A stretch of DNA of 61,847 nucleotides, counting the filler, from Dugesia japonica (taxonomy: Eukaryota), in assembly GCA_001938525.1 (NCBI GenBank). It is 6 parts of 6 records of this genome, joined end to end, with 100 filler letters (N's around TTAATTAATTAA, not from the genome) between each part and the next. Parts side by side here need not be neighbours in the genome. Positions count along the whole stretch, not along the records: positions 18,216 to 30,440 come from MQRL01588472.1; 5 more parts are not named here. One strand, given 5' to 3'. Made by a program: the position numbers and the translations under genes. Shown one piece after another: positions 9,711 to 47,652 of the stretch. Under the pieces are notes generated by a model, which made no database searches, was not told where the DNA came from, and worked only from the letters and a program-made list of their open reading frames with translations. Within the stretch, counting starts at the first letter, position 1. Each line of letters opens with the position of its first letter.

Positions 9711-9810
9711 NNNNNNNNNNNNNNNNNNNNNNNNNNNNNNNNNNNNNNNNNNNNTTAATTAATTAANNNNNNNNNNNNNNNNNNNNNNNNNNNNNNNNNN
9801 NNNNNNNNNN
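9711..9810. other. Artificial contig spacer
   Basis: 44 N + TTAATTAATTAA (stops in all six frames) + 44 N = 100 bp; the same motif occurs five times. Confidence 0.97.
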
Positions 9811-12800: not shown

Positions 12801-12899
12801 TGGTAATTCTTTGTTCCTATCCTGAATTGGTTTACTGTTACCTTTCTATTTTTATTATAACAATCTAGATACAATTAATGTGTTATGTATGTATCTTTC

Positions 12900-15090
12900 A
12901 ATGTTAGTCCCTTAGCTTTCATGCTAGTTTTTTCCTTTAGAAAACTGTAAAACTTCGGCCTCAAGTAAATTCATTCTTTGTATTATTCTTATTTCTGTCG
13001 TCCTAACAAACGAAATCAGATCAATAGTGTAAAAAAGGTGACTTATGTTATAGTTCGATGTTCCTAATAACATATCACTTATCATTAACGCCATACATCT
13101 GTCCAGTTTCATGTAATTAACCTCTAAAACAAAACTATCCGTTTCAATCAAGTACCGTTTGAGCAATTAAATTGGCCTATCAAAACACGAAACATCTTTA
13201 TTGAGTTGAACTGCTTTTAAATCTTTATCAATTTTAAATGTTCTCCTAAAATCTGATTTAGATGCGTATGGTAGCAATCCTCTAGCAGTATTAATGATCT
13301 TTATATTTATTCGCTTCTTTAAATTCTCTGCTGTTTTTCCGTGTACGACAGTATTTAACATTTTGTATTAATTTTATCTAACTCGTTTTTACTTTGTGAC
13401 CTTAGGTCTATGTTAATATCTATGTAATTATTAAAGATATTGGGGCATGTAAATTTCACTTCGTGTACTTTTGTTACTTGCACACTAAAATGAAGTAAAT
13501 TAGCTGCAGCATCCAGTGTACCACATAATTCTGCTTCGAAATAATGCCTCAACAAAATTTTCTTCACTTTACTAACTCGCGAGGGTTTAATATTCATTTA
13601 AACAATCACGTATCTCATTTGGAATAACCATACTCATATCTAATGCATATCTATACAACAGTGAATCCAAGTTCTTTGTTTTGCATTCTTCTGATGTTGC
13701 ATGCATATATAATCTTTATAAGACATTATTAGACTTAAACCTCACCCATACAATTTATTAATATCAATATACATAAACTTTGTATTTTCATCAGATATAA
13801 GATGGTGTTTATTGACAAAAGTGAGTCCTCTTCTGATTCCTACTTCAAAAAACGTATATATATGTCATTATTGATAAGTAATTCTATAGGTTCCTTAAGT
13901 ATCATAAAGGCCGATGCCAAACTCATCCCAGAAATACCAAAAAAAAATTTAATGCTTCCAGTCTATTATTTTTCAACGAGTTTTCTTGAAATTTTTGGAA
14001 ACAGTCAGCCAATAAAAAGACAAACCAACTTTAGATACACCACCATATTATCATGTAAATTATTACATCCGGTAATGTTTTGCATGATTCTTCACTCATT
14101 TTATTTAATCTCCGTGGTATGGTTGTTGTTTCTTTAAGTATTTTCAAACAGGTATCCAAATTATACGTAAACATCCCTTTCGATATAATTATCGTTGCGT
14201 TGATTTTATACAATTTCTGAAGAATCCAATGATGAATTAATCAATTGATTTGAATTAATAAATCGAATTGTTGCCGATTTTCTTCTTCTCAGTGGTTGTA
14301 AGAATACCTTTAATTTTCCAATTTGAAAATCTTAGTCCATACTTCAAAATATGTAGATCAAATCCTCTGAGATTATTGAAAACCACGTGTAACTACTTAT
14401 GTATTTTCCTATTTAAATTACAACTATTGCATGCAGCACTTTTATATTTCCCCGTGATATGATTATAGTCAAGAAAAAGATTTAATAATGATTTTCTACA
14501 TAAATAACAGCAGCAAATTCAATTTCTTGTGCAGGAATAATTGCCATTTTCTTGTGCCCGTTTCGAGGTTGCTCGTATAGATAGTTTACAATATTAGTAA
14601 TATTCTCAACTACAAACTCAAAAAAACAGTTATTCCCAAATCATTGACTGTGTTTGTTTGTCATCAGTTTGTGTAGTTGTCTACTAACAATGGTCCAGCT
14701 AAACTTGTGAAATGTTTCTGTAATAAATCGGATCCTTTGACAAAACTGTCTCAAAATCAACATTTACACAAATAATGGAGTTACTATCTTTAATACTTCG
14801 AACTTCAAATTAAGATCTGTTGGCATTTTGTACATGGTAGTTCTAGTTTGAAATTTTCTGCAAAGAGATTCATGTGTATTTCTACAATTAACACCATTTA
14901 AACAATTTGGAAACCAGAATGATCAAATTTGCACGTCATTTCTTTTTGTGTCCCCATTTATCAACATATTCAAATCCATTACTGCAGTGCAGTGGTAATT
15001 TTTACTTTTTTTAATAATTAAAGGTTAACTTTTTGCCGGTCTTCTAATTTTTATCGGAGCATAATATCCAAGTAAGGGTGCTTCATGACT
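12900..15090 (-). pseudogene. Protein-primed DNA polymerase B (pPolB) remnant with HNH/endonuclease VII-like insert
   Basis: Motifs in order: KVNLLII..NYH, DYNHITGKYKSAACNSCN, VFNNLRGFDLH, KGMFTY, FFEVGIRRG, YIDINKLYG, VVHGKTAENLKKR, ETDSF. Many stops and frameshifts. Confidence 0.85.
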
Positions 15091-15189
15091 ATATCATCAT
15101 CTCCAACTCTTTGTTAGTTCCAGAAGAAGACATTGATAGCATATTTAAAATTTTGCTTTTTAAATTTTTGTATATTTATTAGCATTATG

Positions 15190-15715
15190 ATAATATCCGT
15201 TTCGTCAAATACCAACTTAATCAGGAATTTTTTATAATTTGACACTCTACGCCTATGATTTCCATCAACTTATCTCATTTGAGAACAGCAAGTATACTGT
15301 AGATGAAGTAAATACTATTATAATTCTTAACATTAACTGTAGCTCCTTTCCTTTAAAAGTTTTTTGGAGTAGGAATGTTGTCTTTTAAAAATAAGTTTCA
15401 TTACCCCATTTGATTTTGATATTGTCGAATGAAACGACAACATCCTTAAACAGAGTGTGAAACATAAAGCAGCTCGCTACTAAACAAGTTTTTTCAAATT
15501 TAACAACAACCTTTACTTGTACATACACAAGTGTCATTCAAATCTAGATAATTAGTTTGCGACACATTTATCGTTCCTACATTATATTTACTTTCAAAAA
15601 TAAAATTCATTGGAAACATATCTTCACATGATCCATATTCAATAACACCTTGAGAAGTTGGATGATCAAAAATACATAATTCAGTTTTTCCACAAATCAT
15701 AGCTTTAATAGCCAT
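15190..15715 (-). pseudogene. Major capsid protein remnant (KSELDLF-type N-terminus), internally deleted
   Basis: GKTELCIFDHPTSQGVIE...YLDLNDT resembles the conserved N-terminus of Polinton double-jelly-roll capsids. Confidence 0.65.
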
Positions 15716-16052
15716 TCATTTGTTTGTTTATAATTGAATGCTTACGTTTTATTCCAGCACCTTTGAGTTTTGATTTATTTGTAGTGTTGCCTTTTGATAT
15801 TATTTTCGTTACATCTGAAGAATTTATTAAATAATTAAACTTGTCTATCATATTTGGCAAAAGTTTTGATTTATTATTTATTTCATCCTGCACAATTGTT
15901 ATTTCAATAGTTTCAATACGTTTAAGAATAGGTAAAGAAAATCAAACAATGTTTTGGACGCATCAAGATCCAAACTGTTTTTCTACGAAGTATACCAACT
16001 CTCCAACAGCTTGAATAGTACTATAAAGTTTAATAATATCAGAGTTAGACAT
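15705..16052 (-). pseudogene. Small Polinton core protein remnant
   Basis: QAVGELVYFVEKQFGS...FSLPILKR pattern, basic C-terminus, located between minor and major capsid genes. Confidence 0.45.
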
Positions 16053-16054
16053 TT

Positions 16055-16670
16055 TTATTTCGAAAATGCAGAGTTAAAATTTTGCGTTTTTGAGTCTTGA
16101 GCAAAATTTATTAATTCTCCACTATCACTTCGTATATTGATTTGCATATTATTTATACATGAAGTGGCAACCGATAAATACATTGGATTCTTGACTATTA
16201 TCTGAGCTACTTGATCATCTTCATAATTCTCCAACCATACAGATCTCAACAAATGAACATTAACATCAGTAATAGATATCGGTTCAACAATATTAGTACA
16301 GGTGAATATTTGATGATTTTTGGAGGATTAATTTTGGATATTTAACACCAATGCATCACGAGTATATATTTTTCTGTCTAATTTAAATGATTTTGCAAAT
16401 AGATTGTTAACCCTTTCACTGCAGTGTATTCAATTAGATACACTTGAATTTCCTGATAGACAGTATGGATAAGTTTGTCATATTACATATCATTTTAAAA
16501 GGTCTAATTAGGTCAATCATATACATGAAATGTTTTGATTTCAAATTTTTCACACATAACGTTATAAGTGTTTTAGAGCGCAGTAATGTGAATATGTTAT
16601 ACCGTCGAGTTTCCCTGAGGGCTTTAAAGTTTATCATACAGTCGTAAACTACGAAAGAATATAACAATCA
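16055..16670 (-). pseudogene. Minor capsid (penton) remnant
   Basis: CTNIVEPISITDVNVHLLRSV...NPMYLSV...INIRSDSGELINF matches the Polinton penton C-terminal pattern. Confidence 0.7.
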
Positions 16671-17969
16671 ACAATTATATAACCAAATTGTGAAAAATTA
16701 AAATTTATATTTGATTTTTAATGAATTTTATGTTAAGAATATTAGAATTTTCAAAAGTCATCTTTATGAAAGAAATTTTTGTTTATTTTCAAAACTTTGT
16801 TAAGTAATCTTTATGTATTATTTGAGTCCAAAATTTCAAATATGCGCTCGCTGGGAGTAAAATGGTTAAATATAACAATTTTAACCTTTTACAACAACGA
16901 ATATCAGAATGATTCATCATTATTATAGTTAATGTTTTGGAAATTTGCCTGCACATTTAAATTTAAATTTGATATGTAATACTTGTTTGGTAAAGATATG
17001 AATTTTTCTGTTTCTATTGAAAAAAACTAATTTTATTTTCATAATATCAATCGAATCATCGTTTTGAAAGTATTGATATGGTATGATACAATATGTATCT
17101 ATATCATTCTTTAAATTATTAAATCAAAGTCATTTGGTATTTTCTAAATTGTTAAATATTACAACATAATCATGATGTTTTAATGTGATTAGGAATTATT
17201 ATTTATTAATTACCTCAACATCATGAACCATAAATGTTGTTTCTTTGTTATTTATTATTTCTATATTCCTCTCATAATCATCACCTATTACATTTTTTAT
17301 ATATAGTTATTATATAATTGAAAGGAAGAATATATAAAAGTAAAGTCCATCAAAGCTATTTCACATTGTTAATTCACGTAAATAAAATTTTGAAAGTAAA
17401 CATTTACATAGTAATCCTACAGTCACAGTCACAGTCACAATATTTTAATATTTTAATTTAAATTATGTGTTTTTAGTGTTATTCTAATGTAAATTGTGTT
17501 ATTTCTATGTTTCAAAAGTTTATCATGTTAATATTTATCTACGTAAATAGGTTAATTTTCAAGCAATTTTGAGAATTTAAAATTTCAATTAATTAATTTT
17601 AACTTAAACCAAAACATGTGTACATTTTCCATCGAATTTTTATCAGAAAAGGAAGCATTTTAAACTAGAAGTGCATTAAGCAATTTATAAGTAGATTTTT
17701 ATTCTAATTTTAATGGAGTTAAAATAATATTATGACATGGGGTAGATGTGAGTGCATGATCGCAGCCCCCCCACATAGCTAAAAAACATAACACCTGCGA
17801 TATACGACCATAATGGTTATGGTGGATTTATTGATTAGTGATTTTTGATTGGTACAGATTTTAGATCGTAATTTTTTGATATCATTTAAATCGAAAACAT
17901 TTGTTTTATTGTTTAAAATATGCAGAACTTTAAATTTTTGGAAAACCTACATTTTATTATATAGATGAA

Positions 17970-18114
17970 TATGAATATAGATGTTTATATACAATTCTAT
18001 TTGGATAACCATTATTTAGAAATTATATTTATAATAAAAAATATTGATAAAAAATAAATTTCTAAATAATGGTTATCCAAATAGAATTGTATATAAACAT
18101 CTATACTCAAATAC
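17970..18114. repeat. ~55-bp inverted repeat, possibly a Penelope-like RT remnant
   Basis: 17970-18023 is the reverse complement of 18058-18114; the arm reads FLNNGYPNRIV (NGYP is typical of PLE RT). Confidence 0.6.
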
Positions 18115-18115
18115 A

Positions 18116-18215
18116 NNNNNNNNNNNNNNNNNNNNNNNNNNNNNNNNNNNNNNNNNNNNTTAATTAATTAANNNNNNNNNNNNNNNNNNNNNNNNNNNNN
18201 NNNNNNNNNNNNNNN
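18116..18215. other. Artificial contig spacer
   Basis: N44-TTAATTAATTAA-N44. Confidence 0.97.
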
Positions 18216-19621
18216 TAAAAATAATATTAAAAAAGAATCAGAAATAAAAGATCAAAAAGTTGACAACCAATTTAAAACTAAATTTTCAATCAATCAAATT
18301 GAGATAAATAAAAATTTTAAAGAAAATGATTTTAAATGTGAAAAATTAATTGAAGAAAATAAAAATTTTAAATTTAATTTAGAAGAATTTAAAATAGTCA
18401 AAAGTATTTATATAAGATATGGTGGAATGTCGATGAAATTTGTAAGAATGGCTTCTGAGTTTCAAAATAAAACAACTCCAGAAGCAATTAGTCATTTCAA
18501 AGCAATAGAAATATTCACAAAAAGTTTGAATAGTGATTATTTTAAAGAAATCAAAGAAAGATATGAAGAACTAGTAAAGATTTANNNNNNNNNNNNNNNN
18601 NNNNNNNNNNNNNNNNNNNNNNNNNNNNNNNNNNNNNNNNNNNNNNNAATGTAAAGATTATCCAAATATTTTATGATTTACTATTATGAAATTCTAATAA
18701 TATTTTATCCACTTGATATTAATTGTTCGTCCGGTCATCGCTTGTGACTTTTTCTTTTAAGTGTCAAATATATGAATTTCTTGAGGATTTTGCGTTGAGC
18801 TCAATGCGTTATTAACAATAGAATTTCATCACAAATATCTCGAAAAACATTTACTTTTAATAATGTTTAAATTTTCTACAAAAGATTAATTTCTTCATTT
18901 ATAATAAACAATATTTTATCAGTTATAATTTATAAAAAAATAAAATCTATTTTGTTAATATTAATGAAGACTAATTAACTGCATTCCGATTAAAAGTTTC
19001 TAACTTTGATTTGTGGTAGACATTCTACGATTACAAACTAGGATTAAAAACTTCCTAATTTTAATAATCATTTTTGTTAAATCTATTAAATTAATAATAA
19101 ATTTTTAATTTATTCTTTTAGTTTTTAAATTTTATATTAAATCAATTTCTCAATTTTTACCGGAATTGGGATAATTTCTAAATGTAAATTTATTAAATTT
19201 GTATGGCAACAAATGAAGACTCATTTGTAACTGTTTTAATTCAAATTTTTCTGTCTTTCATTATTATGAACATTCCATAAAACCAGAAAATAATCATTGA
19301 GAAAATAATTAAAGATTTTTCCATTTATTTCAATCTTGATTCTTTAATTCTCTAATTTTCTTTCCAAATATAATAGGTAAAGCATCCTATTTTGTGTCCA
19401 TATGTGACTGTTAATTATATTTTGATAATTTAAAATAACTAACCAAAGAGCACACTTACACAAAGGAATTATCCAATAAATGTTGCCGATCATTAGTTGA
19501 AATTAGTTGAAATCTGTTTATTAAAACAGTCAAAATAGTCAATGCCCAAGTCGTTATACTATTATAACGTTATAAAAACAAATGCTCTCGTCATCCACAG
19601 TTCATGAGCTCATCATGTTCA

Positions 19622-19900
19622 TTATATTCAATTTAAAACCGATTTGTATATAAAAGATATAAAACAAATAAATGATTATATTAAGAAAAAACCTTCAATG
19701 TTATTTAAAGGTTTTTCATTAAAACAAGATGAACTATTTAAATTTGCATTGGCAAATAAAACTAAAAGTTTAATTCTTAATTAAACTTAATTAAGTTTTA
19801 ATTAATTAAGTTTAAAAGCTTAATTAAGTTTAAAAACTTAATTCGATAAAATCTTAACAAAAACATTAGGATTAAATGAATCGCAATATACTCGATTACA
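19622..19900 (+). repeat. Inverted duplicate of 20229-20440 with TTAA-rich filler
   Basis: Alignable by eye to the reverse complement of 20229-20440; ~70 bp of ttaattaag-type filler inserted at ~19770-19840. Confidence 0.85.
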
Positions 19901-19919
19901 TTCATTAATTCATTATTAA

Positions 19920-20560
19920 TTTTTCTAAAATGTAACGTTAAAGGAGTTTTTGAATCTTCAGCAAAATTGACTAGTTTTCCACTATCATCACATATATTGA
20001 TATCTATATTGTTTATATATGATGAAGAAATAAATTAGATTATCAACAATTATTTAAACTATTTCATCATCCTTGTGTTTTTCTATCCATACTGCTTTAA
20101 ATAAAGAAACATTAACGTTCATTACAATTATAGGTTCAACCATACTACAATAGATGAACATTTCCTTATAAGACTTTAATATTCTAGGTTTTTTGATACT
20201 TTCATTCTGTAGTTGTTCATCACCAATATGTGATCGAGTATATTGCGATTCTTTTAATCCTAATGTTTTGGTTAAGACTTTATTGAATTTAACACTTTTA
20301 GTTTTATTTGCCAATGCAAATTTAAATAGTTCATCTTATTTTAATGAAAAGGTTTTAAATAACATTGAAAGGTTTTTTTTAATATAATCATTTAGTTGTT
20401 TTATATCTTTTATATACAAATCAGTTTCAAATTGAAAATAATGTTTAGTTACAATTACATAATAATATTTAATATTTATTTGTTCAATGGAATAATCGTT
20501 TTTAAAGGTATGAAAGCGAATAATAAAAGTTTTATCACCAATATGTTTACTAGTATCCAG
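19920..20560 (-). pseudogene. Polinton minor capsid (penton) remnant, family A-like
   Basis: EMFIYCSMVEPIIVMNVNVSLFKAVWIEKHKDDEIV...SLTLHF; homologous to 16055-16330. Confidence 0.7.
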
Positions 20561-20829
20561 ATTTACAATATTATCTGATTGGGTTACTTAAGCTCTATTG
20601 TACAAAATGTATCAAATGATAAACTATGGAATTTAATAACACTACTAAAGTATATCATATTTTTGTTCCTTAATTGTATAACGGTTTCCTTATTATTTTG
20701 ATATTTGTCTTTACTATACAAGCACTTTGTTTTCTTTATGATTAACAACAATTGATAGTTCCTTCTCAATTAGTTTAAATAATTCATATACAATCCTTGA
20801 TTGACTGTAAATCGGCCTGGCTAAATATC

Positions 20830-21290
20830 CGAAGATGAAATCTATCATAGCAACTTCCAAACTACCATCCATGTAAATAAACAAAAGTTTGATCTCTAGG
20901 ATTTTTGAATAGAACCAAATATTGCACGTTTAAATTACTGGTTTTATGACTACATCTTTGATGAAATAAATTTTGAGTAATAAATATCACAGTAACTTTA
21001 TTTTGTTTCGATATCTTTGTGAATACATTATTGAAATCTTTTCCTTTATTTTCTTCCTGATACAAATCATCAAGAACGATAACATCACCTGGTCTTAATC
21101 TTTTGTTCCAATTTTTTTGTATAAATTAGCAAGAATAGTCAACTGTTTCTTCGAACCAAAGTAATTTCCTGCTTTAAGACTTGTAAAATATGACACTTTA
21201 TGTGTAAATGTGTTCCCAACGGGCAAACTAGTATTATTATGACTTCAAATATTGTATTTTCAAGGATATCTGAATAACATTACTTCAGAT
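20830..21290 (-). pseudogene. Polinton A32-like packaging ATPase remnant, family A-like
   Basis: VIVLDDL (Walker B), FTKISKQNKVTVIFITQNLF, NVQYLVLFKNPRD. Confidence 0.8.
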
Positions 21291-21377
21291 TTATTCAATT
21301 TGCTTGAGAAAATTAAGAAAAATTGCAACACGGTTGTAAAAAAATAATTTAATTACAAAAAATATCAATAAAAACTT

Positions 21378-21640
21378 AGATTTCATTAAAATAAGAAAAG
21401 GCTTCGATCAAAATAAAATTTATTTGTAAAAAGGTTCAAACCTTCGACAATAGTCTTCTTCAGGAACATCTGATGTTCCTGAAGAAGACTATTGTCGAAA
21501 ATTTGAACTTTTTTACNNNNNNNNNNNNNNNNNNNNNNNNNNNNNNNNNNNNNNNNNNNNNNNNNNTTAATGAAATCTCAAATGCGATCAATGGTTAAGT
21601 CCAACAATTATTCTCACAATAATTGTAATTATAAAAATTT
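21378..21640. mobile_element. Penelope-like inverted pseudo-LTR remnant
   Basis: Perfect palindrome 21443-21499 (28-bp arms), extending imperfectly across the N gap; shares sequence with 8180-8362 and 48990-49080. Confidence 0.55.
21475..21508 (+). ncRNA. Putative minimal type I hammerhead ribozyme motif (mirror copy on minus strand 21434-21467)
   Basis: GUUC-CUGAAGA-A-GAC UAUU GUC-GAAA-AU-UU-GAAC. Confidence 0.55.
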
Positions 21641-21959
21641 AGATATTTAATTTTCAAATAATTAATATATTACGTTGTGGTTTTGAATATATATATATTT
21701 CATTTAATTATTATTTTCTTGTAAAATTAAATTAAAATGATTAAACGAAAATCATCTATGAAGGAATTTGAAAAGGATTTTATGAAGACAGGTTGAATAT
21801 TTATTATTTTGTTATTGTATTAAAAAATTTAATTTAAATATTTTAGAAAAAAGGGGATTAATAGACGAAGAAAGGAAACCAATGCTTCCATACTCAGTAG
21901 TAAATCGGTATATGGCAGCCAATTTTTGTGCACCTTACTGTATTGTGTGATTCCTTGAT

Positions 21960-22403
21960 AACTCCATTAGAAGTTATACAATGGTTTATAGAAAAAAAGT
22001 ATTTTTCATATAAACCAAGATTAGTTAATGTAGTTTTAAGTATTCAACCAAATGAAATTATTCCTTGTGATAAATTATCTAAACAGAAAAAGAATTTAAT
22101 AATTTTTGATGATGTGGAAAATGTAAAAGACCCAGAAATCCAGAAAAGTTTTTTTACTAGAAGAAGACGTGTAAATTGTAATGTTATTTATATTTCACAA
22201 ACTTATTTTTATTTGACAAAAACTCTATTAAAAATAATTGTAATTGTTTTATATTTTTCAAATTAAATAAAACTGATAAAGATAATGTTTAGTATGATTT
22301 ATTTAGTAATATTTTTTCTAATAAAATGGAATATGATTATGAAGTTAATTTACACTGGAAAACAAATTATAACTACTATTATTTAAATTGAGAAGCAGGT
22401 GTA
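21960..22403 (+). pseudogene. A32-like packaging ATPase, 3' half
   Basis: PNEIIPCDKLSK, IIFDDV, FFTRRRRVNCNVIYISQTYF; close paralog of 56327-57079. Confidence 0.88.
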
Positions 22404-22483
22404 TTGATTGAAGATCTTTTTAAAATGGCCCCGAGTAGAAAGCGTGATTTCAAGAGTGAAAATTTCTCGCCGAGAAACGGTTT

Positions 22484-22930
22484 TTAGTTTTTTTCATGGG
22501 ACCCTTCGGGATCTTCTACATTTAAAATTACTACATCTAAAATTATTTTATCTTGATTTAAAATTTCTTCTACTCTTTTTAAATTATTATTTAACTGATG
22601 TAAAGATAATGTACAATTAAATAATATTGGGAAACGTTTACATAAATTATAATATTTTATTAATTTAGTAATATATGGATAAGAATAGTTTATATCATTA
22701 TCTTGTAAGATTTTCATAAGTTCATATTTTTTTCTTTCAACTTTTTTATCTAAAATTTTAAAATATCTTCCTAAATTATAATAAACTTTATTTGATTTAT
22801 TCTTCACGTTAATTAAATTGGAATCTAATGTTTTAATATTAATAATTAATGAATCTATACATGTATTCTGTTTAATTGGTATAATCTCAGGTAAATCAAT
22901 TTTAGTACTTTTAAAGGATTTTAAAAACAA
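22484..22930 (-). CDS. Polinton accessory protein of unknown function (true start probably upstream)
   Basis: 148-codon open frame within the element; no recognised domain. Confidence 0.5.
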   Translation of the reverse strand: MFLKSFKSTKIDLPEIIPIKQNTCIDSLIINIKTLDSNLINVKNKSNKVYYNLGRYFKILDKKVERKKYELMKILQDNDINYSYPYITKLIKYYNLCKRFPILFNCTLSLHQLNNNLKRVEEILNQDKIILDVVILNVEDPEGSHEKN

Positions 22931-23567
22931 TTCTTTGAAATCTTTATTTCTAGATTGTATACTTGTATATATACTTGTATACTTGTATAAATACTTGTGT
23001 ACTTGTTAAAGGTAAAGTTGATGATGGAAATAATATTGAAAGTAATGGTTGTTCTGTTGTTTGTTCTAGCTTAAATTCAATAAATACTTTATCTATATCT
23101 TCAGGTTCTTTAGGTTGGGATTCTCTGGGATGAGCCTATATGAGATAGAGCCCTTTGGGATGTTCATATTTATTATTATATTCAAGCAAACTTCTAGATT
23201 CTGGTTTATATACATATATACTATTTTGGGTTCGATTGAGGTTTTCAAATTCAAATTCAACTNNNNNTTCAAATTCAACTTTAGGTTTAGGTTCAACGTT
23301 AGGTTCAAATTTGACTTGGGTCTTTTTAAGATGATTAGTTGTATGGGCCCCTTTTGGATGGGTCTCTTTGGGATGTTCAAATCTTATATCATCTTTAAAT
23401 CTTTTAATATATTCATATATATGGTTAAAACAATTACAGTATTAATGGTCTTCAATAAAAATTTCCAAACTATTTTTATCTTGAAAAAAATCTGTTATTT
23501 CTTTCTTCATTATTCTTTCCTTGTCATCATATTCCATTTTTATTAATAAAATATTTAGCTTAACAAA

Positions 23568-24085
23568 ATGTCTCCAGTATCAGAAAAAGAATTAATTGAT
23601 TTGGTAAATTTAAATAAATGTAAATCTGTAAAAATTAATAGTAAAACTATTGGATTGGTAGTAAAGTTAAAGAAGAAATAAAAAAGAAACTGGCAAGCGA
23701 TAAAGGCGGATTATTTCCTTTATTTAGATTAATTCCTGGGATAATTGCTGGAATAACAACTGCGGCTGGAACTACCGCGGCTATCGCTGGAGCAGCTTCT
23801 GGTATAGCTTTTACTGTAAGTAATTCCAGAGATGCAATTAAAAAACAAAAAGAAATTGAATTAGTTGAGTTACAGAAAAAAAATTTAGAAAATAAATTAG
23901 AAGCAAATTAAACTGGTTCAGGACTTTACTTAAAACCTTATCAAGGTTCTGCAATTCATAAATATTTTAAAAACAGTTTACCAAAGTCAGAGTTGAAAAT
24001 GATTACTAAAAACTTTAAAAATGGAATACAANTTAAAGTAAAAGGTGATGGTTTATATTTAAAACCTTATGAAAATCCTAAATAA
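23568..24085 (+). pseudogene. Polinton core / membrane-active protein (pX-like)
   Basis: DKGG-LFPLFRLIPGIIAGITTAAG Gly/Ala-rich amphipathic segment followed by two GxGLYLKPY motifs; has a stop and a frameshift; homolog at 54812-55116. Confidence 0.65.
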
Positions 24086-24086
24086 A

Positions 24087-24936
24087 ATGGATAATGAACA
24101 AATGACAACAAGAATAAACTTTTGAAAGAATTAATTAAAGCTCAAGATGACTATGATCATTTATTTATTACAGGAGTAATTGAATCAAAAGTTTTACAAG
24201 ACACTTTAACTGTTCAACAACAACTTATTATTAAAGCAATTGAAAATTTAAGCACAAACCCTAAAGGGGCCCAAACAAAACCCACAAACCCTTTTGAAAA
24301 TAGAATTCCATTCTTTTCAAGTAATATTATAAATACTGAATTTTTAAAATCTCCAAAAAATGTACCTATATTTGAAACAGAAGTTATTGATAATAAAAAC
24401 TTTTATCCTAAATTTATCCTAATCTTAAATGATCACAAACAGTAATATATTTATTTGAAGAAAATGGAAGGAAATACTTTTTAAATAACCAAGAACTAAA
24501 TCCTTATTCTGAAGAAGTAATGAATTGAATTTTCGGAAATGGAAGTAATGATCTAGAAGCTAAAACTATTTATTTAAATAAGTTTAATATTACAGTTCAT
24601 CCTAATTCTAAATATTATAAATTCTTAGCTGGAGAAAAAGAAACTCCTTTCAGTCGCAAGCGAGAGCGAGCTCCTGAAACTTCTAAAATACCAAAGCTTA
24701 AAAATGAAATCCCAGTTGAAAAAGAAATTATAGGTGATGGTTTAGAATTAGATCATAAAAACGAAAGTGATCGTGAATCTCAAGACAAGGCGATCCAGTT
24801 TCTTTATTTGAAATTAACATTATTAATTGCAGTTGTAAAAGCAGATTATAATAATTTAAACAAAGAAATTAAATTTGTTTGTAAAGAATTATTAAACCAG
24901 GAGTTAATTATCAAAGAAAATTATAATGTTTTTTAA
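24087..24936 (+). pseudogene. Conserved Polinton virion-associated protein
   Basis: C-terminal LKLTLLIAVVKADYNNLNKEIKFVCKELL resembles the RLxLLxAxxxAGNN..EI motif; N-terminal homolog at 55097-55560. Confidence 0.55.
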
Positions 24937-24960
24937 AAATAAATATTTTATATAAATAAA

Positions 24961-25639
24961 ATGTCTCATCAATTTTTAGTTATTGGTAAAGAGTCTGATT
25001 TAAAAGTAGATTTAAGATTTCCAATAGAATTAGATTTAGACTATGAAATGGCTTTATTATCTTTTAGTTGTTATAATATAATTTTTAATGTTACTAATAA
25101 AAATAATACTTTTGAATTAAACAAAGAACAAAAAACGAGCTACGCAAATGTAATTATTGGACCAGGTGCTTATGAAATTAAAGAAATCTCTAGTAAATTA
25201 AAAGATCATGGAATTGAAATTGTTCCTGATCTTTCAACAACAAAATGTACTTTAACAACAAAACATTCTCTCAAGTTTAATAATTTTCATTTTTCATACA
25301 ATCTCAGGTTTTTTACCTAAAGATTACTTACCAGGAAAATACTATTCAGAAAACAAAGTTGATATTCTAAACCTTAATATGATAAATATTACTTGTAATT
25401 TAATCAAAGGTAGTTATATCAACAACTTACCAATGAATTTGTTATATTCTTTTCCAGTAAATATTGTAGGTTTTGGTTATAAAATTATAGAAAGACCTTC
25501 AACTCCTATTTATTCAAGATTAAACTGCAAATTTATTGATTCTTTAAAATTTAATATTATAGATGAAAATAATAATCCAATTGATTTTGATGGAGAAACT
25601 ATTTCTTTATTAGTTCATATTAGAAAATGTCGTTCATAA
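24961..25639 (+). pseudogene. Minor capsid protein (penton), one frameshift
   Basis: PIELDLDYEMAL, NVTNKNNTF, GPGAYEI, INITCNLIKGSYIN, GYKIIERP, IIDENNNPIDFDGE. Confidence 0.85.
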
Positions 25640-26106
25640 ACTCAGTCTTAGATTTTTTAAAAACAATTGGAATAAATACTAAAACTAATTTTGATTTGTA
25701 TTCAATTGCTGATTTTTTAAATTTAGAACTTGAGGTATTAATCAAAGATTAAATCCCAAAGGGTCCCTTCCAAGACATGCATGTCTCGCTTTCCCCTAAA
25801 GATAAAAGTAAAATGAGCTTGAAAGATAAAGAAAATAAATCGGCTCTGGAGGGCCAAATAATTATTTATTATCAAAATTCAAATCAAAAAGGAACTCTTT
25901 GGTTTGCTTTTCATAACAGTCTTATGGCTTAAAACCTTTTAAAGAAATTGAAAAACATGTAAAAGTATATAATAAAATTCTAGTTCAACCTTTTGGAACT
26001 AGTATTTGCGGAATTTTGTGTTTATATTTTTTTATATTCACTTGCATACAAATCCTTTGATGAAATCTTTGAAGAATTATATGATACCTTTAGAGACTTA
26101 CTTTAA
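25627..26106 (+). pseudogene. Adenain-like cysteine maturation protease
   Basis: Manual translation: YQNSNQKGTLW (GTHW, catalytic His mutated), SYGLKP, VQPFGTSICGILCLYFL (Q...CG). Not present in the ORF track. Confidence 0.8.
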
Positions 26107-26126
26107 ATAACCCTTTTAGAAAATAA

Positions 26127-27447
26127 ATGAATAAATTTGGAGAAATATTAAATAGTCAAAATAATACTGAAGTATTAAAACATGTTTCAGCTAAATTAAA
26201 ATTAGAATCTATTAATAATGAAAAAAGGTTTGTTAATGAAATTGGAGATTCAATTACTTGTTTGAAAATCATTAATGAACCTAAAAAAGAATTAGATGCT
26301 ATTACTAAATATTTGTAAATAATTTGAAGAATGAAGTTAAGAATAATATCAATAGTGAAATTATTAAATTAGAAAAACAAGTTTCTGATGTTAAAAATCA
26401 ATTGAGAAATAAAATATTTATAATAAAAATAATAAATAATAATGAAAATAATAAAACTTGGATTAAAACCAAGAGTGATTTAATTATTAAAATAAATTAA
26501 TTAAATAAGCTAGCATAAACTATGAGTGAATCTTTTAATTCTTTGAAAACTGATTTTAAAAATGAGCTAACGCAAATGAAGAGTGATCCTAACGGGCCCC
26601 ATTTTAAAAATACACAAGTTAAAAAAGAAATCGAAAAGATCTTGGAAAAAATTGAAAAGCTCACAAAAGAAATTACAAATCTCACAAGTAATTGTTCTCC
26701 TGAAAAATTTAATAAAATTAATTTAGAATTGGAAAAACATAATTACAAAATCAATTTTAATAAACAAATGATGAATGATCCTTTAATTCTTTTAGAACAA
26801 TTATTTATTAAAATAAAACAAGATCTTTATATTGATAGTGTTAAAAAAATTAATGATTACATTGATAAATTAAAAAACCAGGCATCATCTGAAAAACTTT
26901 ATGAACAAGATTTATTAAATAGGATTAAAGAAATAATTGATAAATATTTTCAATTTCTTGTTTTAAAAAATTATGGTAAGTATAATGATGTATTAATATT
27001 TTTATAAACTACTTTAATTACAAAGAATTACTTACCAAGTTATTATGGTTTAATATCACCATTTAAAATAAAAAGAAAAGGAATATTAAAAGATAATAAA
27101 TATTATTACCTTGAAAATCCATTAGAACTTTATTTCTGGTTAAATAGGGTAAGAGAAAAAGCTTATTTTATATTTCAAGGATATTGTGACATTTCATTTT
27201 TTGAAATTTATGTAATGATTGATAACATTCCAAAATTATTTGAATATAACTTTATTAAAAAACAAGAATTTACTTTTTTTATAGAATAGAAAGAAATTCT
27301 ACTAACTGAAAAATATATTGTGGATAGAGTTACTTTAATTTTACCTAAAAATATTTATATTTATAAAATTATTATGTTAAGTGATTATTCAATTGCTAAA
27401 AAATTATATTCTGAATTATTATTAAAACCCAAATTATTACTAAAATA
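26127..27447 (+). pseudogene. Coiled-coil protein, possible fiber/spike
   Basis: FVNEIGDS...EPKKELDAITKY resembles the fiber-type GD...DAxTKxY repeat; long coiled coil follows; several stops. Confidence 0.45.
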
Positions 27448-27449
27448 AA

Positions 27450-28098
27450 ATGGATGAGCAAGTTGAAGATTTAAATTTAAATGTCAGTGAGAATCAAAAT
27501 ATTTATCCAAATTTAGAAAGTATATTTACAAAGATCAAAAATATGCTATTCAAGATTTAAAAACTAAATTATCAAATTTGAGAATAATAAATTTTGAATC
27601 TGATCTTTATTTTATTGATGATAAATTTAATCATTATGAAAAGATTTATAAAAGATGGTCAAGGTTAGATACTTCAATTAGATGTACAGAAATATTTATT
27701 GGTACAGTTGTTGGAATAACTGGAACTATATTAATTTCTTTAGGAACTTTTGGAATTGGAACAAGTTTAATTCTGATTATTTTAACAAGTGTAATTTCTT
27801 GTATTCCAGTTATTGGTACTTGAAATTTATCATTAATAAAATCAAAAAAGAAAAAGTATAAAAATTTAATTCATGAATTAGAAACTGTTAAAAACAAATT
27901 ATTTTTATTTCATCAAAAAGCTTTATCTGATGATATTTTAACTGATGAAATTGCTACAAGCAAGAATATAGTAAAACAAATTAAAGATTTTATTTCACAT
28001 GAAAAAATAATCAAGTTAAATATGAAAATGAAATTTTTAAAAAACTTGAAAATCAAATTGAAGAACAACAAAAAGTTATTAATAAATATAAGAAATAA
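27450..28098 (+). pseudogene. Polinton membrane protein with two hydrophobic helices (GasderminX-like)
   Basis: IYPNL, HYEKIYKRW, Gly-rich hydrophobic hairpin, KALSDDILTDE; homolog at 55730-56330. Confidence 0.65.
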
Positions 28099-28099
28099 A

Positions 28100-28294
28100 T
28101 GTGCCCGCATGCACAATCTTTTAATTTTAAATTTGATACCCGCGGGTGTTGATTTATTTTCATTTAAGAAATGGGACCCATTGGGATTTTTAATTTGAAG
28201 ACCGCGGTCTTCACTTTATATTTTTAGATTTTAGAAGTCGGTCACGCATGATTGATTTACATTGAGTGAGTTTAGAAATTCAGTCCCGCGGGAC
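28100..28294. repeat. Cluster of six GC-rich palindromes/hairpins between convergent genes
   Basis: ACCCGCGGGT (28138-47), TGAAGACCGCGGTCTTCA (28196-213) and GTCCCGCGGGAC (28283-94) are perfect; three more are imperfect. Confidence 0.75.
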
Positions 28295-28372
28295 CGATTT
28301 ATTATATTTAGAGATTTTTAATTTTTATTTAAAGATTTTAAAAAATAATCTACTGCAGTAGATACTTTTTAT

Positions 28373-30440
28373 TTATATTAAATTACAATTTAATTTTTGT
28401 TTTAATTTATCTAATCTTAAATGCCATTTATTACACTTTGAACATTTAAATTTATTTCCATGTGGCCATGTCCTTATTCTATTATCTTCTATTAATCTTT
28501 TATCATCATAACCTGTTAAAGCTATTTTCTTTTGCTCGGTTAATTCCATTTTATGTTTTTGTGATTTTAAACCTTGATTGGTTCCATAAATTCTTTCTTT
28601 GGGATTACTTAAAACTTTATCATAATATTCCATTCCTATTTTATTTACTTTTGAAACTCTTTTATGTTTAGTTTTTTATCATCTTGAATAATAAAACTTT
28701 TTGCTTTTATAAAGTTACATTTAACTATTTCATTATTCGGTTTCTCGTCTTTTATTTGAAATAAATTATTACCCAATAAACTTGTTACTTTATTTAAACT
28801 TTTTGAACAGTTATTTCTACAAATATAGAGTCAGTATCTGAATAATGTATTTTATACTTGTTTGGTACTATTTTATCTAACAGATTATAAATGAAATCAT
28901 AAATTACTTCTTTCGTATATTCTAAAATAGTAAAACAAATATATGGAAATTTATTATATTTTAATTTTGTTTTATGAAGATGTATTTCAGCTGATTCTGC
29001 TTCGCCATTTTCTTTAAAACTAAATATTTTACTAGATTTAAAATTAATATTACTTGCAAATTTCTGATATTCTTTATCATTATCTACAATTTCAACATTA
29101 CACCTATTTCTTATATTTTCTAGTATTTTTCCATAGAAAGCATTATTTAATAATTTAAAGAAATTATTTCTTTTTGATTCATTTCTTTGATCAATATTAA
29201 ATTGAATAAAATCTTTTAACCAAGGTTTTGTGGGCATTTTATATTTAGAATGTATTTTTTTAATTTTCATTTCTAATGATTTGTATAAATCTAAAGTACT
29301 TAATAAAATAATACAATTTTATTTATCAAATTGATTCAAAGTTAATTTAACATTTTTCTTTGATAATTTCTTTTCAAAGCTTAATTGATAAAGTGCCAAT
29401 ATTTCTTTAGTTATTATTATTGGATCTGGGGCTAGAGGTAAGTATTTAGTTTTCTCATGTATCTCTTTTGGATATTCTAAATCTACTTCATAAATATAAT
29501 TAATTTTATCTGTTGATTTAATATATTCTAAATCCTTATATTCACAGATTTCACCTGTTGGTAAAGGTTTTGTCATACAACTAGCATACAAAGAATTTTC
29601 ATCTAAATATTTTAAAAATGTTTCTTCAAAATAATCATCTGGAAGATATTGTTCAGGATTTCTAAATATATTTAATAAATCATCTAATTGACCATTATTT
29701 ATTTTTTTATTATTTCTTTTACTATTTCCAAATACTTGTCTTTTTCCACAAACACCTGAATATCCTCCTCTAACTCCTCTTTCAATTTTAATAAATCTGT
29801 CAAAAGTTTCTTTTTGTGCATATTTTAATTTTACTTGTGTGAATGTCATTCCAGAATTCCAAGTTAGACCCGTAGCTGAATAACAATAACTTGGATCTAT
29901 TTGATAATTATTTAAACATTTTTCTCTAAAATTCTCAAAGAAATCTGCTAAAATAATTACATCTATTTTCATATAAAACATTATGTAATCCAAAAGATTA
30001 TTGAATTGATTTACAAAATTTTTCAAATTTTTTAACATCATAAATATTTACTGGAAATTTAATTCCGTTGGTATTTAATTCATTTAAATAAGGAATATAA
30101 TTACTAACTCTAGTTGGATTATTAAATATATGTTTATGAGCTAAAATTAAATATAGAAAACATTTTTCATCTTTATTTTTAATATTAATTACACCTGGCT
30201 TTGAAAATGGTAATTTTCTATAAGTTGCTCCAGCTAAAGATTGATATTTTAAAAGTTCAATTTTATAATCAACAATGTAATTTAAATTCCATCCAGATTC
30301 ATTTTTATCATCATCTTCAATATATCTTTGAAGTTGGTTTATAATATCATTGACACCATTGTTAATTTCACTTTCAATAGTAAATTTTCTATTTTGTGAA
30401 TATGAATTAAAAATTCTTTCAACATTTTCACCGTTTACTT
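28373..30440 (-). pseudogene. pPolB, intein-less allele, exonuclease/HNH region deleted
   Basis: GSGW-like N-terminal motif, CFLYLILAH, YLDENSLYASCM, NAFYGK, uninterrupted YSDTDS, YDDKR; ~1.1-kb deletion at ~30020 relative to 50096-54914. Confidence 0.95.
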
Positions 30441-30540
30441 NNNNNNNNNNNNNNNNNNNNNNNNNNNNNNNNNNNNNNNNNNNNTTAATTAATTAANNNN
30501 NNNNNNNNNNNNNNNNNNNNNNNNNNNNNNNNNNNNNNNN
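30441..30540. other. Artificial contig spacer
   Basis: N44-TTAATTAATTAA-N44. Confidence 0.97.
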
Positions 30541-34854: not shown

Positions 34855-36080
34855 AGATGTTTTTTTATTCTTTTTATTTGTTTTCATTTATTATATTTAT
34901 TTTATTTTTATTCATTTTATTTGTATTTATTTTTTTTATTCAATTTATTTTTCTTTTATTTTATTTGTTTTCATTTATAATTTTATTTATTTTATTTTTA
35001 TTCATTTTATTTGTATTTATTTTTTTTTATTCAATTTATTTTTCTTTTATTTATTTATTTTATTTAATTTTTCGGTTATGAAAAGTAGAGNTTGTAGTAG
35101 ACTTTGTAAAAATTTATCTGAAATTGAAAACCTTAATTTAGTTATTCAAAGTAAAATATTAATAACACAATCTTCACAGGTTTTATTTTTTTTATTTATT
35201 TTTTTTTCATTTTATTTTTTATTTATTTTTCTTTTATTACTTTTCATTTAGTTCATTTTTTTTATTTTTTTATTCATTTATTTTATTTGTATTTATTATT
35301 TTTTTATTTTTAATTTTACTTTGTAAAAATTTATCTGAAATTGAAAACCTTAATTTAGTTATTCAAAGTAAAATATTAATAACANAATCTTCACAGGTTT
35401 TATTTTTTTTATTTATTTTTTTTTCATTTTATTTTTTATTTATTTTTCTTTTATTTTATTTCATTTTTGTTATTTTTTTATTCATTTATTTTTGTATTTA
35501 TTTTTTATTATTTTTTTATTTTTAATTTTACTTTGTAAAAATTTATCTGAAATTGAAAACCTTAATTTAGTTATTCANNNNNNNNNNNNNNNNNNNNNNN
35601 NNNNNNNNNNNNNNNNNNNNNNNNNNNATAACACAATCTTCACAGGTTTTATTTTTTTTATTTATTTTTTTTTCATTTTATTTTTTATTTATTTTTCTTT
35701 TCTTTTATTTCATTTTTATTATTTTTTTATTCATTTATTTTTGTATTTATTTTTTATTATTTTTTTATTTTTAATTTTTCGGTTATGAAAAGTAGAGCTT
35801 GTAGTAGACTTTGTAAAAATTTATCTGAAATTGAAAATCTTAATTTAGTTATTCAAAGTAAAGTTTTAATAACACCATCCTCACAGATTTCATTATTTAT
35901 TTTTTCATTTATTTATTTTATTTTATTTATTTTTCTTTTATTTTTTATTCATTAATTTAATTTAATTTTACGGTTATGAAAAATAGAGATTGTAGTCGAC
36001 TTTCTTTGAAAATTTTATATGAAATTGGAAATCTTAATTTAGTTATTCAAAGTAAAATATTAATAACACAATCTTCACAG
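34855..36080. repeat. Compound tandem repeat: ~78-bp conserved core alternating with T-rich tracts, 5 units
   Basis: Core ctttgtaaaaatttatctgaaattgaaaaccttaatttagttattcaaagtaaaatattaataacacaatcttcacag at ~35102, 35319, 35531, 35809, 36004. Confidence 0.9.
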
Positions 36081-36734
36081 ATGTTTGTTGTAATATTAGT
36101 AGTATTTTAAAACATTGTACGTATTATGAGTTTCAATTAATTTCCGCCTTTTGGAACAAAAACAAATTTATTTTTACAATATTCACAATAGATAAATTAG
36201 TATAAATATTTTCCTACACTTTCTATTACTTTAAAGCGTCTTTCTGAAAAGCTTGATTCCTTTACTACAAAACGCTTTATTCTTGGAACTAATCAACTGA
36301 GCAGCTTATTTTAAAACATCTTCGTTATTGAAAGGTGTATATTTCTCACCATTACTATATCGATCCGAAAAGTGGTAATTGGAAGTGCCAGTTCAGGAAG
36401 TATGTTGGGTGCTATCGAACGTCTCAAAAAATCCCAATGTTTTCTTTACACACTTTATGAAATGTGACCGAGCATTGTTTTTAAGTAGAATATCTTTGCA
36501 ATTATTATTGATTATTGCAGATCGTTTTTGCATAATTTCTTTATTCAATTTAATTAATTTTGATTGTACCGATTTTTTGTAATGGTCTCATTTGGTGATA
36601 AATGCGATGTAGAAGGTCAAGAATTTGATTGTCTTAATAGTATTATATTACATCGATAAAAACTTTTGCCATCCTGTCAAATAAACATTTAACTATATTG
36701 TTCAGTAATATAATTTTTCATTTTTAGTATTAAT

Positions 36735-40070: not shown

Positions 40071-40170
40071 NNNNNNNNNNNNNNNNNNNNNNNNNNNNNN
40101 NNNNNNNNNNNNNNTTAATTAATTAANNNNNNNNNNNNNNNNNNNNNNNNNNNNNNNNNNNNNNNNNNNN
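40071..40170. other. Artificial contig spacer
   Basis: N44-TTAATTAATTAA-N44. Confidence 0.97.
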
Positions 40171-40469: not shown

Positions 40470-41735
40470 CGAGGATTGTCTGAAAAGTTTTTAGCCCGAC
40501 CCATTTCCAAACAAATTTTTGATTTTTTGTCAATAGTTTATAAAATTCATTCTTTATTTAGTTATAATAAATCGATCTTTATATTTGTATCATTTAATTA
40601 ATAGTATTATTTTTTGTTTTAGTAAATGACTTAGAATGAATTAAAAAACTTTGAAAAAGTTGAATATCGGGCAGTCATAAAATATCTTTTTTTAAAGGAC
40701 CTAAGCCCAAAATAAATTTATGAAGATATGAGCAGAACATTAAAGAAATCCTGCCGTCATATGCAACAGTGAAAAAGTGGGTATCATCATTTGAGAGAGG
40801 CAAAACAAGCATCCAAGATGAGCCAAGGTCCGGACGACCAATTTCTGCATCATCTCAGGAGAACATTGAAAAAGTACACGAAATGATTCTTGAAAATCGT
40901 CGAATTTCAATCAGAATTATTGCTGAGACCTTAAAGCTATGCAAAGAATGTGTTGGTAAAATCATTCACGAAGATTTGAATATGAATAAGCTTTCTGCAA
41001 AATGGATCCCTAAATGCCTGAATTCTGATAAGAAGCAAAGACGAGTGCAGAGTTCAAAGGTGATTCTGTCACATTTTGCAAGGGATAAAAGTAAATTTAT
41101 TAATCAAATTCTAATCGTCGATGAAACATGGTTCTTTGATCCTGAAACCAAACAACAATCGAATCGCCCCGACCCAGAAAATTCCGAAGACAAAAGTCTG
41201 CATGAAAGTCTTAGCCACTCTTTTCTGGGATTGCAAAGGCATTGTGATAATAGACTTTTTAGAAAAAGGCTAAACTATAAATTCTTAATATTATTCATCT
41301 TTATTGGTCAAAGTTAAAGAAAAATTAAAACAAAAACGACATGGAAAGTTAAGAAACGGTATTCAATTTTTGCAGAACAATGCACCTGCACACACCACCT
41401 TACAGACATTAAATACAATTCAAGATATTGGATTCCAAGTTTTAGAACATACAGCCCATTCTCCTGATTTTGCTCCGTCCGATTATTTTTTGTTTTTATA
41501 TTTGAAAAAAATGTTGAAATGAAAGCATTTCGAAACAAACAATGATGTCATCGAAACTACGAAAGCATGGTTTAAAGCCCAATCTGCGGACTGCTATGAA
41601 GGCATAGCTTCATTAGAAAAAATATGTAATAAGTGTATTAATTGTTTGGGAGAATATATTGAATAAAAATACTGGTTTTCTCTTTTTTGAAATATTTAGT
41701 ATGGGTTAGGCAAAAAACTTTTCAGACACACCTCG
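40470..41735 (+). mobile_element. Mariner (DD34D) transposon, full length, defective
   Basis: TIRs CGAGGATTGTCTGAAAAGTTTTT / AAAAAACTTTTCAGACACACCTCG, TA flanks, 1266 bp. Confidence 0.93.
40636..41666 (+). pseudogene. Mariner transposase
   Basis: DEPRSGRP, KWIPK, VDETW, QNNAPAH, HSPDFAPSDYFLF; frameshifts and stops. Confidence 0.92.
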
Positions 41736-43470: not shown

Positions 43471-44267
43471 TCAACTTACATATTTATCCTCATCTAACTG
43501 TTCAGCAACAGGAATATCTCTTTTGTTTTTCAAATAAAACATTTCCAATTTGCTTTTTAGTTGAGCATTTCTGCAGATTGATATGAAGTTGGGTACTAAA
43601 CAATTTACTTGTGGAGGTATTTGTTTGATAATTGTTTTCATTATTGTTTCTAGTTTGTCAATTTTCTTCTTCTGTAAATACATATTCATAATAACAAAAT
43701 GACAAATAAGAAAATCATTATTACATCATTCGAATCACACATCGTATCCATTAGGATATCAACAGCAGTTCTCCCATCAAATTGTTCATTTAAATTTTGA
43801 CATTCCAGAAGAAGAAATTTGAAAACCTTTAAATATCCTTTACGAGCAGCAATGTGAAGAGGAGTTTCAGAATTTTGATTTTTCATTTCATAAAGGCATT
43901 GGTGGTTATCAGTCTTACATAATTTTAAGGGAAATCTTTCACTAGAATATAATATTAAATTGGTTAATAAAGTTTCTCCGTTTTGAAGTAGTTTTGGACA
44001 AGTGATTTGATATTGAAGAAATCTTTCAAATATTTCATCTTTTTCATTTTGTGCGGCAGTAAACAAAGATTCCTCAACAATCGACTCAACGAATCTCTCA
44101 CCAGACAATTCAAGAATAAATTCGATCAGTTCTAATTGAGAATTTACGATGTATTCCAATAACAAATTTCTTTTAAATTCATGATCTTGTAAATCGAAAA
44201 CAATTTTCAATAATTCAGGCCATTGTCTTTGATACAATTCGAGAATATCTTCAGTTTCAATGTTCAC
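43471..44267 (-). CDS. Host ankyrin-repeat gene, two exons joined by a 53-bp phase-0 intron (43672-43724); partial
   Basis: ETPLHIAARKGYLKVFKFLL ankyrin repeat; a GT...TTTACAG intron joins the two ORFs in frame; next donor GTAAGT at ~43479. Confidence 0.7.
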
Positions 44268-44786
44268 ATGTTGACATTGATTTAAGATGACGCTTAGAGT
44301 GCTATAATAAATAATTATTCATTTATTCATTTGATTATCAAATTATTAATTTGCTAAAGTTTTTGTTTCCATTAAATATTTATTATTTACATATTTTATG
44401 TATTATTTTCCCTATTTACATTTATACAATATTTATTATTTTTATTATTTGTATGAGTAGAGCTACAGAAAAAAGTAAACGTAGATAATGTTAACTTTAA
44501 TGAAATAATTATTAATTAATGATTTCAGCCAATAGAAAGCGATTAAATTGAATACTAATATTTTATTAGTTCTCTTATCATATAATAATTTAATTGAGAT
44601 CTGTTTTGAGAGTGAAATAAAGTATGTCTAAAAATATTAGTTGTGATTAGGAAAATGGATTATCAATTGAAGATTTACCTAACAATAACAAACAGATAAT
44701 ACACCAGACTATACAGAATAGAATACGAGAAATAAAAAGTTGCATATGTAAAAAGTTAGGTAGTTAAAGCAGAAATTGCCTAACAT

Positions 44787-46612: not shown

Positions 46613-46787
46613 TGAATCTGTTTATTTTATTGAGAATATTGAGAATATTATTATGATGAATCTTACTGATCTGTTGGATCTGAAATATTTTATTAATAAT
46701 TAAATTATAATATTTTTGTAGATCCACACAAATTTATTTCAAATAAATTTTGTGTGGAAGTTTGTAATTCAGTAAAATAGGAGAAAC

Positions 46788-47125
46788 AAATATTGATGAT
46801 TTCTCAATCAAATAAAAGAAATTCATTATTTTCTATTGATTAATGGACAAATATAATTGTGGAAAATGTCAAAAAAAAAACAACCAATAGGAAAATATTA
46901 GAAATAAATATTTCTGATTTCTCAATTAAATAAACAATTCATTATTTTCTATTGATCAATAAACAAATAGAATTGTGGAAAATGTCAAAAACAACAACCA
47001 ATAGGAAAATATTAGAAATAAATATTGATGATTTCTCAATCAAATAAAAGAAATTCATTATTTTCTATTGATTAATGGACAAATATAATTGTGGAAAATN
47101 NNAAAAAAAAACAACCAATAGGAAA
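46788..47125. repeat. Tandem repeat, ~115-119 bp x ~3
   Basis: Unit aaatattgatgatttctcaat...caaccaataggaaaa repeated. Confidence 0.9.
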
Positions 47126-47652
47126 AGCGTTTACAATTGTGTGTTATGCAAAGAAGTAGATAAATGATAGGTCTTGTCTAGATAATGATACCAGACAAAA
47201 TGTAGAACAATATTCATCAAACAATATGAAATGAGTAAATGTGGAAAACAGAATCATCAAAATAAAATACATTAACAGAAGGACAGAAAATTGTACTTAC
47301 TTGGACTGGCATGAAAATATCAGCGCATCTCTCTACCAAAAAAGAAATCTGTTGTTCATCTTTGTTGATTACTGCTAAATGTAAGGGAGTAAATCCATAC
47401 TAGCAATATTTAGTTATCAAATTATGAAAACTATTAAACATTTCATACGCAATCCTTCTGATCGACCAAAGCATTTGGATTGATAAATGCAAGTGCGCTG
47501 TTCATTATTTTGTTCTCTAGTGCAATGTGCAATGGAGTTTGGTTAAACTGGAATTAAATTTAAATAAATATTCTACAAATAATTAGATTGTTTTAGCAAT
47601 CAATCCGCGATCCAGTATTCAATGTGATATCGCAACGAGAAATATTTGAAAA

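Follow-up and report, generated by a model that had tools for sequence, protein, structure and literature searches.

A predicted pol-c intein in a Polinton DNA polymerase and its uninterrupted site in a related Polinton family

The window, a 61,847-nucleotide stretch of the Dugesia japonica assembly GCA_001938525.1, is a chain of unplaced 8–12 kb contigs joined by five identical 100-base pads (9711–9810, 18116–18215, 30441–30540, 40071–40170 and 49771–49870; each 44 N, a 12-base stop linker and 44 N). Because these pads are artificial, neighbourhoods across them are not real, and the two Polinton copies described below, A and B, share an assembly and not a locus; their physical linkage was ruled out by the scaffold pads between their contigs. 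The window also holds broken transposase frames at 40598–41666 and 6496–7221 (Pfam HTH_32 and DDE_3), the HTH_32-matching one presumably mariner-like, together with an ankyrin-repeat frame at 43686–44318 that is likely a host exon and long imperfect tandem repeats at 34926–36082 and 46771–47126, spaced at about 220 and about 118 bases.

Element B, a near-complete Polinton, fills its contig (49871–61783) between terminal inverted repeats (49871–50036 and 61618–61783) whose arms are 83–91% complementary. Its polymerase gene (pPolB), spread over several frames of the plus strand (50096–54914; Pfam PF03175, DNA_pol_B_2, E 3e-19), encodes in order N-terminal C2H2 fingers, an Endonuclease VII-like domain (PF02945, E 1.8e-5), the DNA_pol_B_2 core, an intein and a C-extein that contains a stop. 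On the minus strand lie a retroviral-type integrase (rve) with an N-terminal phospholipase A2-like domain (57893–58987; PF00665, E 3.9e-8, and PF08398, E 5.3e-6) and a broken major capsid protein gene (59180–60460), whose match to the double jelly roll family PF21738 (E 1e-4, 22.1 bits) falls under the curated cut-off of 27. A gene at 56327–57088 has Walker-like motifs, from which we take its product to be a packaging ATPase. Judged by sequence, element B qualifies as a Polinton/Maverick on its pPolB, integrase, inverted repeats, sub-threshold capsid and ATPase by motif; no protease was found in it. Further hallmarks of Polintons/Mavericks are a 6-bp target-site duplication and AG...CT ends; the left end of element B adjoins a scaffold pad.

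The 18 bases at 28827–28844 belong to a second element, A. Translated from the minus strand they read YSDTDS, within IHYSDTDSIF, in agreement with the first-pass annotation, which had reported this sequence in a related pPolB with no insert. The motif shares a frame with ENSLYASCMTKPLPTGEI and NAFYGKILENIRNRC, save for one in-frame stop. A motif of this kind is expected 0.035 times per base-shuffled window (200 shuffles), and chance is excluded because the motif sits inside a polymerase frame. The 18 bases are motif C of a decayed family-B polymerase, that of Polinton copy A. The broken gene (28373–30440, minus strand) has in-frame stops at 29319–29321 and 28794–28796 and changes of frame after motif C and near 30020–30050, has lost its 5′ part at the contig end, and by itself matches no Pfam family at E 0.01. 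Both window polymerases, A and B, are thus decayed; recoding of TGA as Trp was dropped as an explanation, since TAA and TAG also break the polymerase frames and table 4 opens none.

Motifs of the copy A frame recur in copy B at 52617–53099, and the two polymerases share 53% identity across 420 residues (E 3e-141). The likeness stops at the first Asp of motif C, restarts right after the insert, at TDSIF, and continues to the C-terminus. The uninterrupted copy therefore fixes the intein boundaries, as had been proposed, and the equivalent of the intein site in copy A lies between plus-strand bases 28836 and 28835. The rest of element A is a fragment, cut by the contig end, that carries homologues of three other element B genes in a different order. 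Among them are a homologue of the probable ATPase gene at 21937–22421 on the plus strand (tblastn identity 50–64%, no Pfam match), for which we assume the same product, and a homologue of the unnamed element B gene 55767–56273 at 27537–28044, also on the plus strand (69% nucleotide identity). No integrase or capsid match was found in the element A frames scanned. Two frames at 24943–25639 have a beta-rich look and no Pfam match, and by resemblance we assume that they may encode a minor capsid protein. With about 70% nucleotide identity and different gene orders, copies A and B represent different Polinton families, as assigned from their sequences. Polintons with and without the intein do co-exist, as the first-pass annotation stated, in one assembly and on different contigs.

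The insert in copy B (53394–54407, plus strand; 1014 nt, 338 codons) lies in frame at a conserved site, splitting motif C after its first Asp and before the Thr (YxD|TDS). It begins with Ser, ends with Asn and is followed by Thr at +1, which is also true of the inteins of four full-length relatives. A first LAGLIDADG motif (53799–53837), whose core residues are invariant in the alignment, and a second (54090–54125; PF14528, E 1.1e-8, 35.6 bits against a cut-off of 22.5) are conserved in all five full-length inteins. The copy B intein has in-frame stops at 53757–53759 and 54195–54197, and one residue of its splicing block B is changed, a block that is uniform among the four full-length relatives. 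The Pfam family PF14890 scored above its cut-off for the relative P0005 only and below it for P0003, P0004 and P0006, and did not match the window copy. In a structure model built from the five-row alignment (pLDDT 76), the best PDB matches were endonuclease-bearing inteins (E 4e-13; 23 matches had an E of 0.001 or lower), and matches to PDB sequences included the split polymerase intein NEQ068 (E 2e-5). We thus predict that the insert is a class 1 intein with a LAGLIDADG endonuclease at the pol-c site.

In the available text of PMC549080, the pol-c inteins of Mimivirus and archaeal PolB sit in motif C at YGD|TDS, and share with copy B the site, the first Ser, last Asn and +1 Thr, the LAGLIDADG endonuclease and a length of about 350 residues. 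The host, in contrast, is the protein-primed polymerase of an integrating element, unlike the Mimivirus and archaeal hosts described there, and the Asp is preceded by T, L, G, M or S in Polinton carriers, whereas in the pol-c inteins of that text it is always preceded by G.

Contigs from three DNA runs of the source organism (three studies, 2014–2025) were mapped to 52400–55400. Each run placed 9,647–9,829 contigs there, with all 30 bins covered and the whole intein included. In all three runs at least 99% of the summed depth, which is not a copy number, differs from the window at the two stops of the intein and at the changed block B position; these defects are thus private to the window copy, and the intein-bearing family is large. 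Among the 15 of 35 joints listed, none joins B-like sequence precisely across the intein, which is weak evidence because high-copy repeats yield short contigs. Two joints span the whole intein (53348>54472 and 53351>54457; one contig each, sides of 27–30 letters), but their ends fall about where the likeness of copy A to B stops and resumes, and we therefore take them to be A-like rather than empty B alleles. Over the endonuclease part (53713–54217), summed depth was about 1,800–4,400 in all three runs, compared with about 10,000–30,000 over the splicing parts; this could reflect endonuclease-less mini-inteins or faster divergence, the C-extein bins dipping equally, and no endonuclease-skipping joint appeared among the joints listed. 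At 53940–54416, three long contig pieces, 82–86% alike to the intein, stop aligning 9 bases past its end, a hint, with only 0–11 letters beyond, that this intein also sits in exteins of the source organism that have diverged further. No RNA run was listed among those carrying the sequence; one RNA run gave 9 partial reads less than 90% alike, in 6% of the run, and is no evidence either way.

Searching with the intein gave 102 long proteins, and a profile search 2,974 representatives, of which the best 150 were listed. The 250 distinct proteins comprised 7 pPolBs, 196 polymerases with PF00136-type exteins, 19 type II topoisomerases and 28 without assignment. The PF00136-type exteins we infer to be of giant-virus type, several of the loci being GVMAG records. 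All seven pPolBs came from the intein search and carry the insert at the same site, four of them full length and free of stops; none was assigned among the best 150 of the 2,974 profile representatives, with 28 of the 250 proteins left without a class. The nearest non-Polinton inteins found, 35–40% identical, occupy the same pol-c site in PF00136-type polymerases. Among the profile-kept viral and metagenome loci (80 of 459 and 80 of 315), 152 of 160 had a PF00136-type polymerase and none a pPolB; 15 pattern matches to a single intein in viral contigs yielded no confirmed case, and a plasmid search found no match. Related inteins also occur in pairs, with motif B and motif C each holding one, in the PF00136-type polymerases P0225–P0235, as several inteins in one host protein of no assigned class (P0253), and in the topoisomerases (19 of the 250 proteins, among them P0029, P0041 and P0046–P0050).

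Six of the seven pPolBs belong to the polymerase class of the window (NAFYGK-type motif B), with exteins 28–33% identical to that of B. The seventh, P0003, from a 5.3-kb contig, belongs to another class, which we take to be marked by a VSR-like motif, and its extein could not be aligned to that of B (best E 0.63). Its intein is nevertheless 53% identical to the B intein, which is itself 41–43% identical to the inteins of P0004–P0006, where the exteins are 30–33% identical. The P0003 extein is 76–80% identical, on both sides of the site, to the empty polymerases P0373, P0374 and P0375, of which P0373 and P0375 are named Mytilus edulis and P0374 is full length. P0003 and these partners are the best empty-allele pair that we found.

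For the unrooted extein tree, 127 rows were dereplicated at 72% and stripped of empty ones shorter than 350 residues, which left 25; the unalignable P0003 was omitted. In this tree, empty copy A is sister to B (support 100/100) and intein state takes three changes. Strict monophyly of the intein-bearing copies, the pattern that the first-pass annotation had named as contrary to its view, was rejected (AU p=1.8e-5). The intein tree, also unrooted, was built from 45 of 141 full-length pol-c inteins, picked by score to a Polinton-intein profile, with three partial ones added. A 100/100 branch separates the eight Polinton inteins from 40 PF00136-type inteins (99 in a mixture model); the Polinton inteins are thus a group of their own. 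The B intein is sister to that of P0003 (100/99; 99 in a 24-row mixture-model tree), and grouping the seven same-class inteins together, a group named after the tree was seen, was rejected (p-AU 0.019). Given that the sister of the B intein sits in an unalignable class and that the exteins with an intein do not form a single clade, the intein has likely jumped laterally between polymerase classes at least once, and the earlier proposal of lateral spread gains in weight. The cross-class jump depends on a single protein, P0003, and no class-crossing conversion tract was seen in its flanks.

We consider most probable, at roughly 70%, a reading in which motif C marks the site of a self-splicing intein that likely derives from a giant virus and has likely homed between Polinton lineages, and in which copy A is likely too diverged to be a target. 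The insert interrupts the essential motif YxD|TDS; its position, ends and fold are observed, as are its distribution and the discordance of the trees. By analogy with pol-c inteins, intact copies would splice by Ser/Asn/Thr chemistry, and the polymerase would be active only afterwards. The freed endonuclease would then cut motif C of pPolB genes that lack the intein, and repair would copy the intein into the cut gene wherever both elements are present in one nucleus. The discordant trees suggest that at least one such transfer crossed polymerase classes. Within the B family the intein would now be mostly fixed and carried along with the element, while the A family was presumably never invaded or lost the intein; first entry may have been from a giant virus sharing a cell with a Polinton. 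In the available text of PMC549080, homing by gene conversion was judged implausible between sites with 5–7 of 18 differing bases, and the repair of a jump between nearly unalignable genes raises the same difficulty that was discussed there for Mimivirus and archaea.

How much of the distribution needs homing is another matter. The intein might have been gained once, long ago, and inherited vertically, with A and the other empty copies losing it precisely and homing irrelevant save for one old jump; we consider this unlikely. The extein tree is silent on gain versus loss, and the seven same-class carriers all fall within one starred 11-row set that includes four empty rows, which fits one old gain followed by losses for that class. 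In one subclade (P0004, P0005, P0024, P0042 and P0045), intein and extein identities also move in step (46/47, 60/62, 73/69 and 81/88%), as vertical descent would predict, so that much of the pattern can be old descent with losses. Against a single gain, several precise losses are required (P0105, A and P0106/P0117), the B and P0004–P0006 inteins are more alike than their exteins, and both LAGLIDADG motifs are retained in five full-length inteins. Endonuclease motifs kept without recurrent homing are unexpected.

The first-pass annotation had also taken copy A for a usable empty allele, and this was not supported. Copy A belongs to a separate family with diverged flanks, and an uninterrupted motif C is the default: it was found in 119 of 120 listed relatives of A (233 in all; one variant) and in 111 of 119 relatives of P0003 (the best 120 of 579, minus P0003; the motif is absent in eight), and a search of these 239 listed proteins with the intein profile gave no matches. 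Exteins that are nearly identical and differ only by the intein are not what A and B are (53% at the amino acid level). Signs of co-conversion around the site were ambiguous: over the last 20 residues before it, the number of identities is 7 for B against A and 10 for the empty P0105, with other windows down to 5, and a P..G..N motif, chosen after looking, occurs in five of seven carriers and none of 119 empties. The 18 bases of copy A are ordinary, and their value lies in fixing the boundaries and breaking monophyly; copy A may once have had the intein and lost it, instead of never having been invaded.

It is improbable that the copy A family is a live homing target, which the B endonuclease cuts to suppress a competing element. 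A is the closest extein relative of B, and at the intein site, in a comparison that is approximate because the flanks of copy B are themselves decayed, 14 of 18 and 20 of 30 bases match, with three amino-acid changes in the 30 bases and the amino acid kept in seven of eight downstream codons (one changed). The A site is even nearer to that of B than the P0003 site is, yet the intein reached the P0003 class. A homing endonuclease that harms an empty competitor also has a precedent in the available text on PhiPA3 gp210 (PMC11620839), with the difference that gp210 is an HNH enzyme in a phage intron for which interference was demonstrated by experiment, whereas competition through a Polinton intein is a hypothesis. 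However, five of the eight upstream codons change the amino acid, including that at position −2, and LAGLIDADG enzymes tolerate silent changes while single non-silent ones often abolish or reduce cutting, according to the available text of PMC3159444. The family, moreover, is still empty beside a high-copy intein family, a better fit to resistance than to targeting, and both window copies are dead. Because of the coding changes at the site and the separate family, we regard copy A as a doubtful present target.

A contaminant or an environmental virus, rather than the host nuclear genome, is very improbable as the source of the contigs: they are short and unplaced, and B fills its contig with no host junction seen, but thousands of related contigs, 80–100% identical and spread over three DNA runs, carry private stops and frameshifts and look like decayed genomic copies, every organism-named relative is an animal (2 of 120 relatives of A and 8 of 120 relatives of P0003), and neighbouring contigs carry mariner/DDE transposase-like frames. 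The GC content is 17–30%, and poly-A RNA libraries exist for the eukaryotic source. An animal host genome for the intein-bearing elements is likely.

Beyond the preferred reading of a transferred, giant-virus-derived intein lies a bolder claim: that animal genomes carry mobile, endonuclease-bearing Polinton inteins, descended from a giant-virus pol-c intein and now in high copy, which are still homing across classes that share little beyond motif C and are cutting intein-free rivals. We hold this to be possible, with the odds against it.

Among the viral hosts of inteins, DNA polymerases are the most frequent (67 listed), and inteins have been stated to be absent from metazoan genomes (PMC5784728). 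The HNH and VSR insertions in Polinton pPolBs (PMC10748475; PMC11071308) are likewise nuclease domains inside Polinton polymerases, and were suggested to result from intein invasions (PMC11071308). They differ in being retained domains elsewhere in pPolB, whereas copy B has a predicted full splicing domain in a catalytic motif and, besides the intein, an Endonuclease VII-like domain. The words intein, LAGLIDADG and Hint do not occur in the main text of PMC10748475, and no splicing-domain intein in a Polinton polymerase was found in the literature on inteins in Polintons, adintovirus, virophages and metazoa, as covered short of subscription journals, Repbase notes and supplements. A laterally transferred pol-c homing intein in Polinton polymerases, likely in animals, is thus a likely and apparently unreported finding. 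If true, protein splicing and a LAGLIDADG enzyme reach animal nuclei through a high-copy mobile element, which would leave a record of contact between the DNA of Polintons and that of giant viruses, and likewise among Polinton classes; such contact bears on whether Polintons exist as active viruses that take part in co-infections.

P0003 and its empty partners make Polinton homing directly testable. Finally, P0005 and P0006 represent 136 and 121 member sequences, respectively, with P0005 on a 657-kb contig, and further high-copy intein-bearing families are likely in other hosts.
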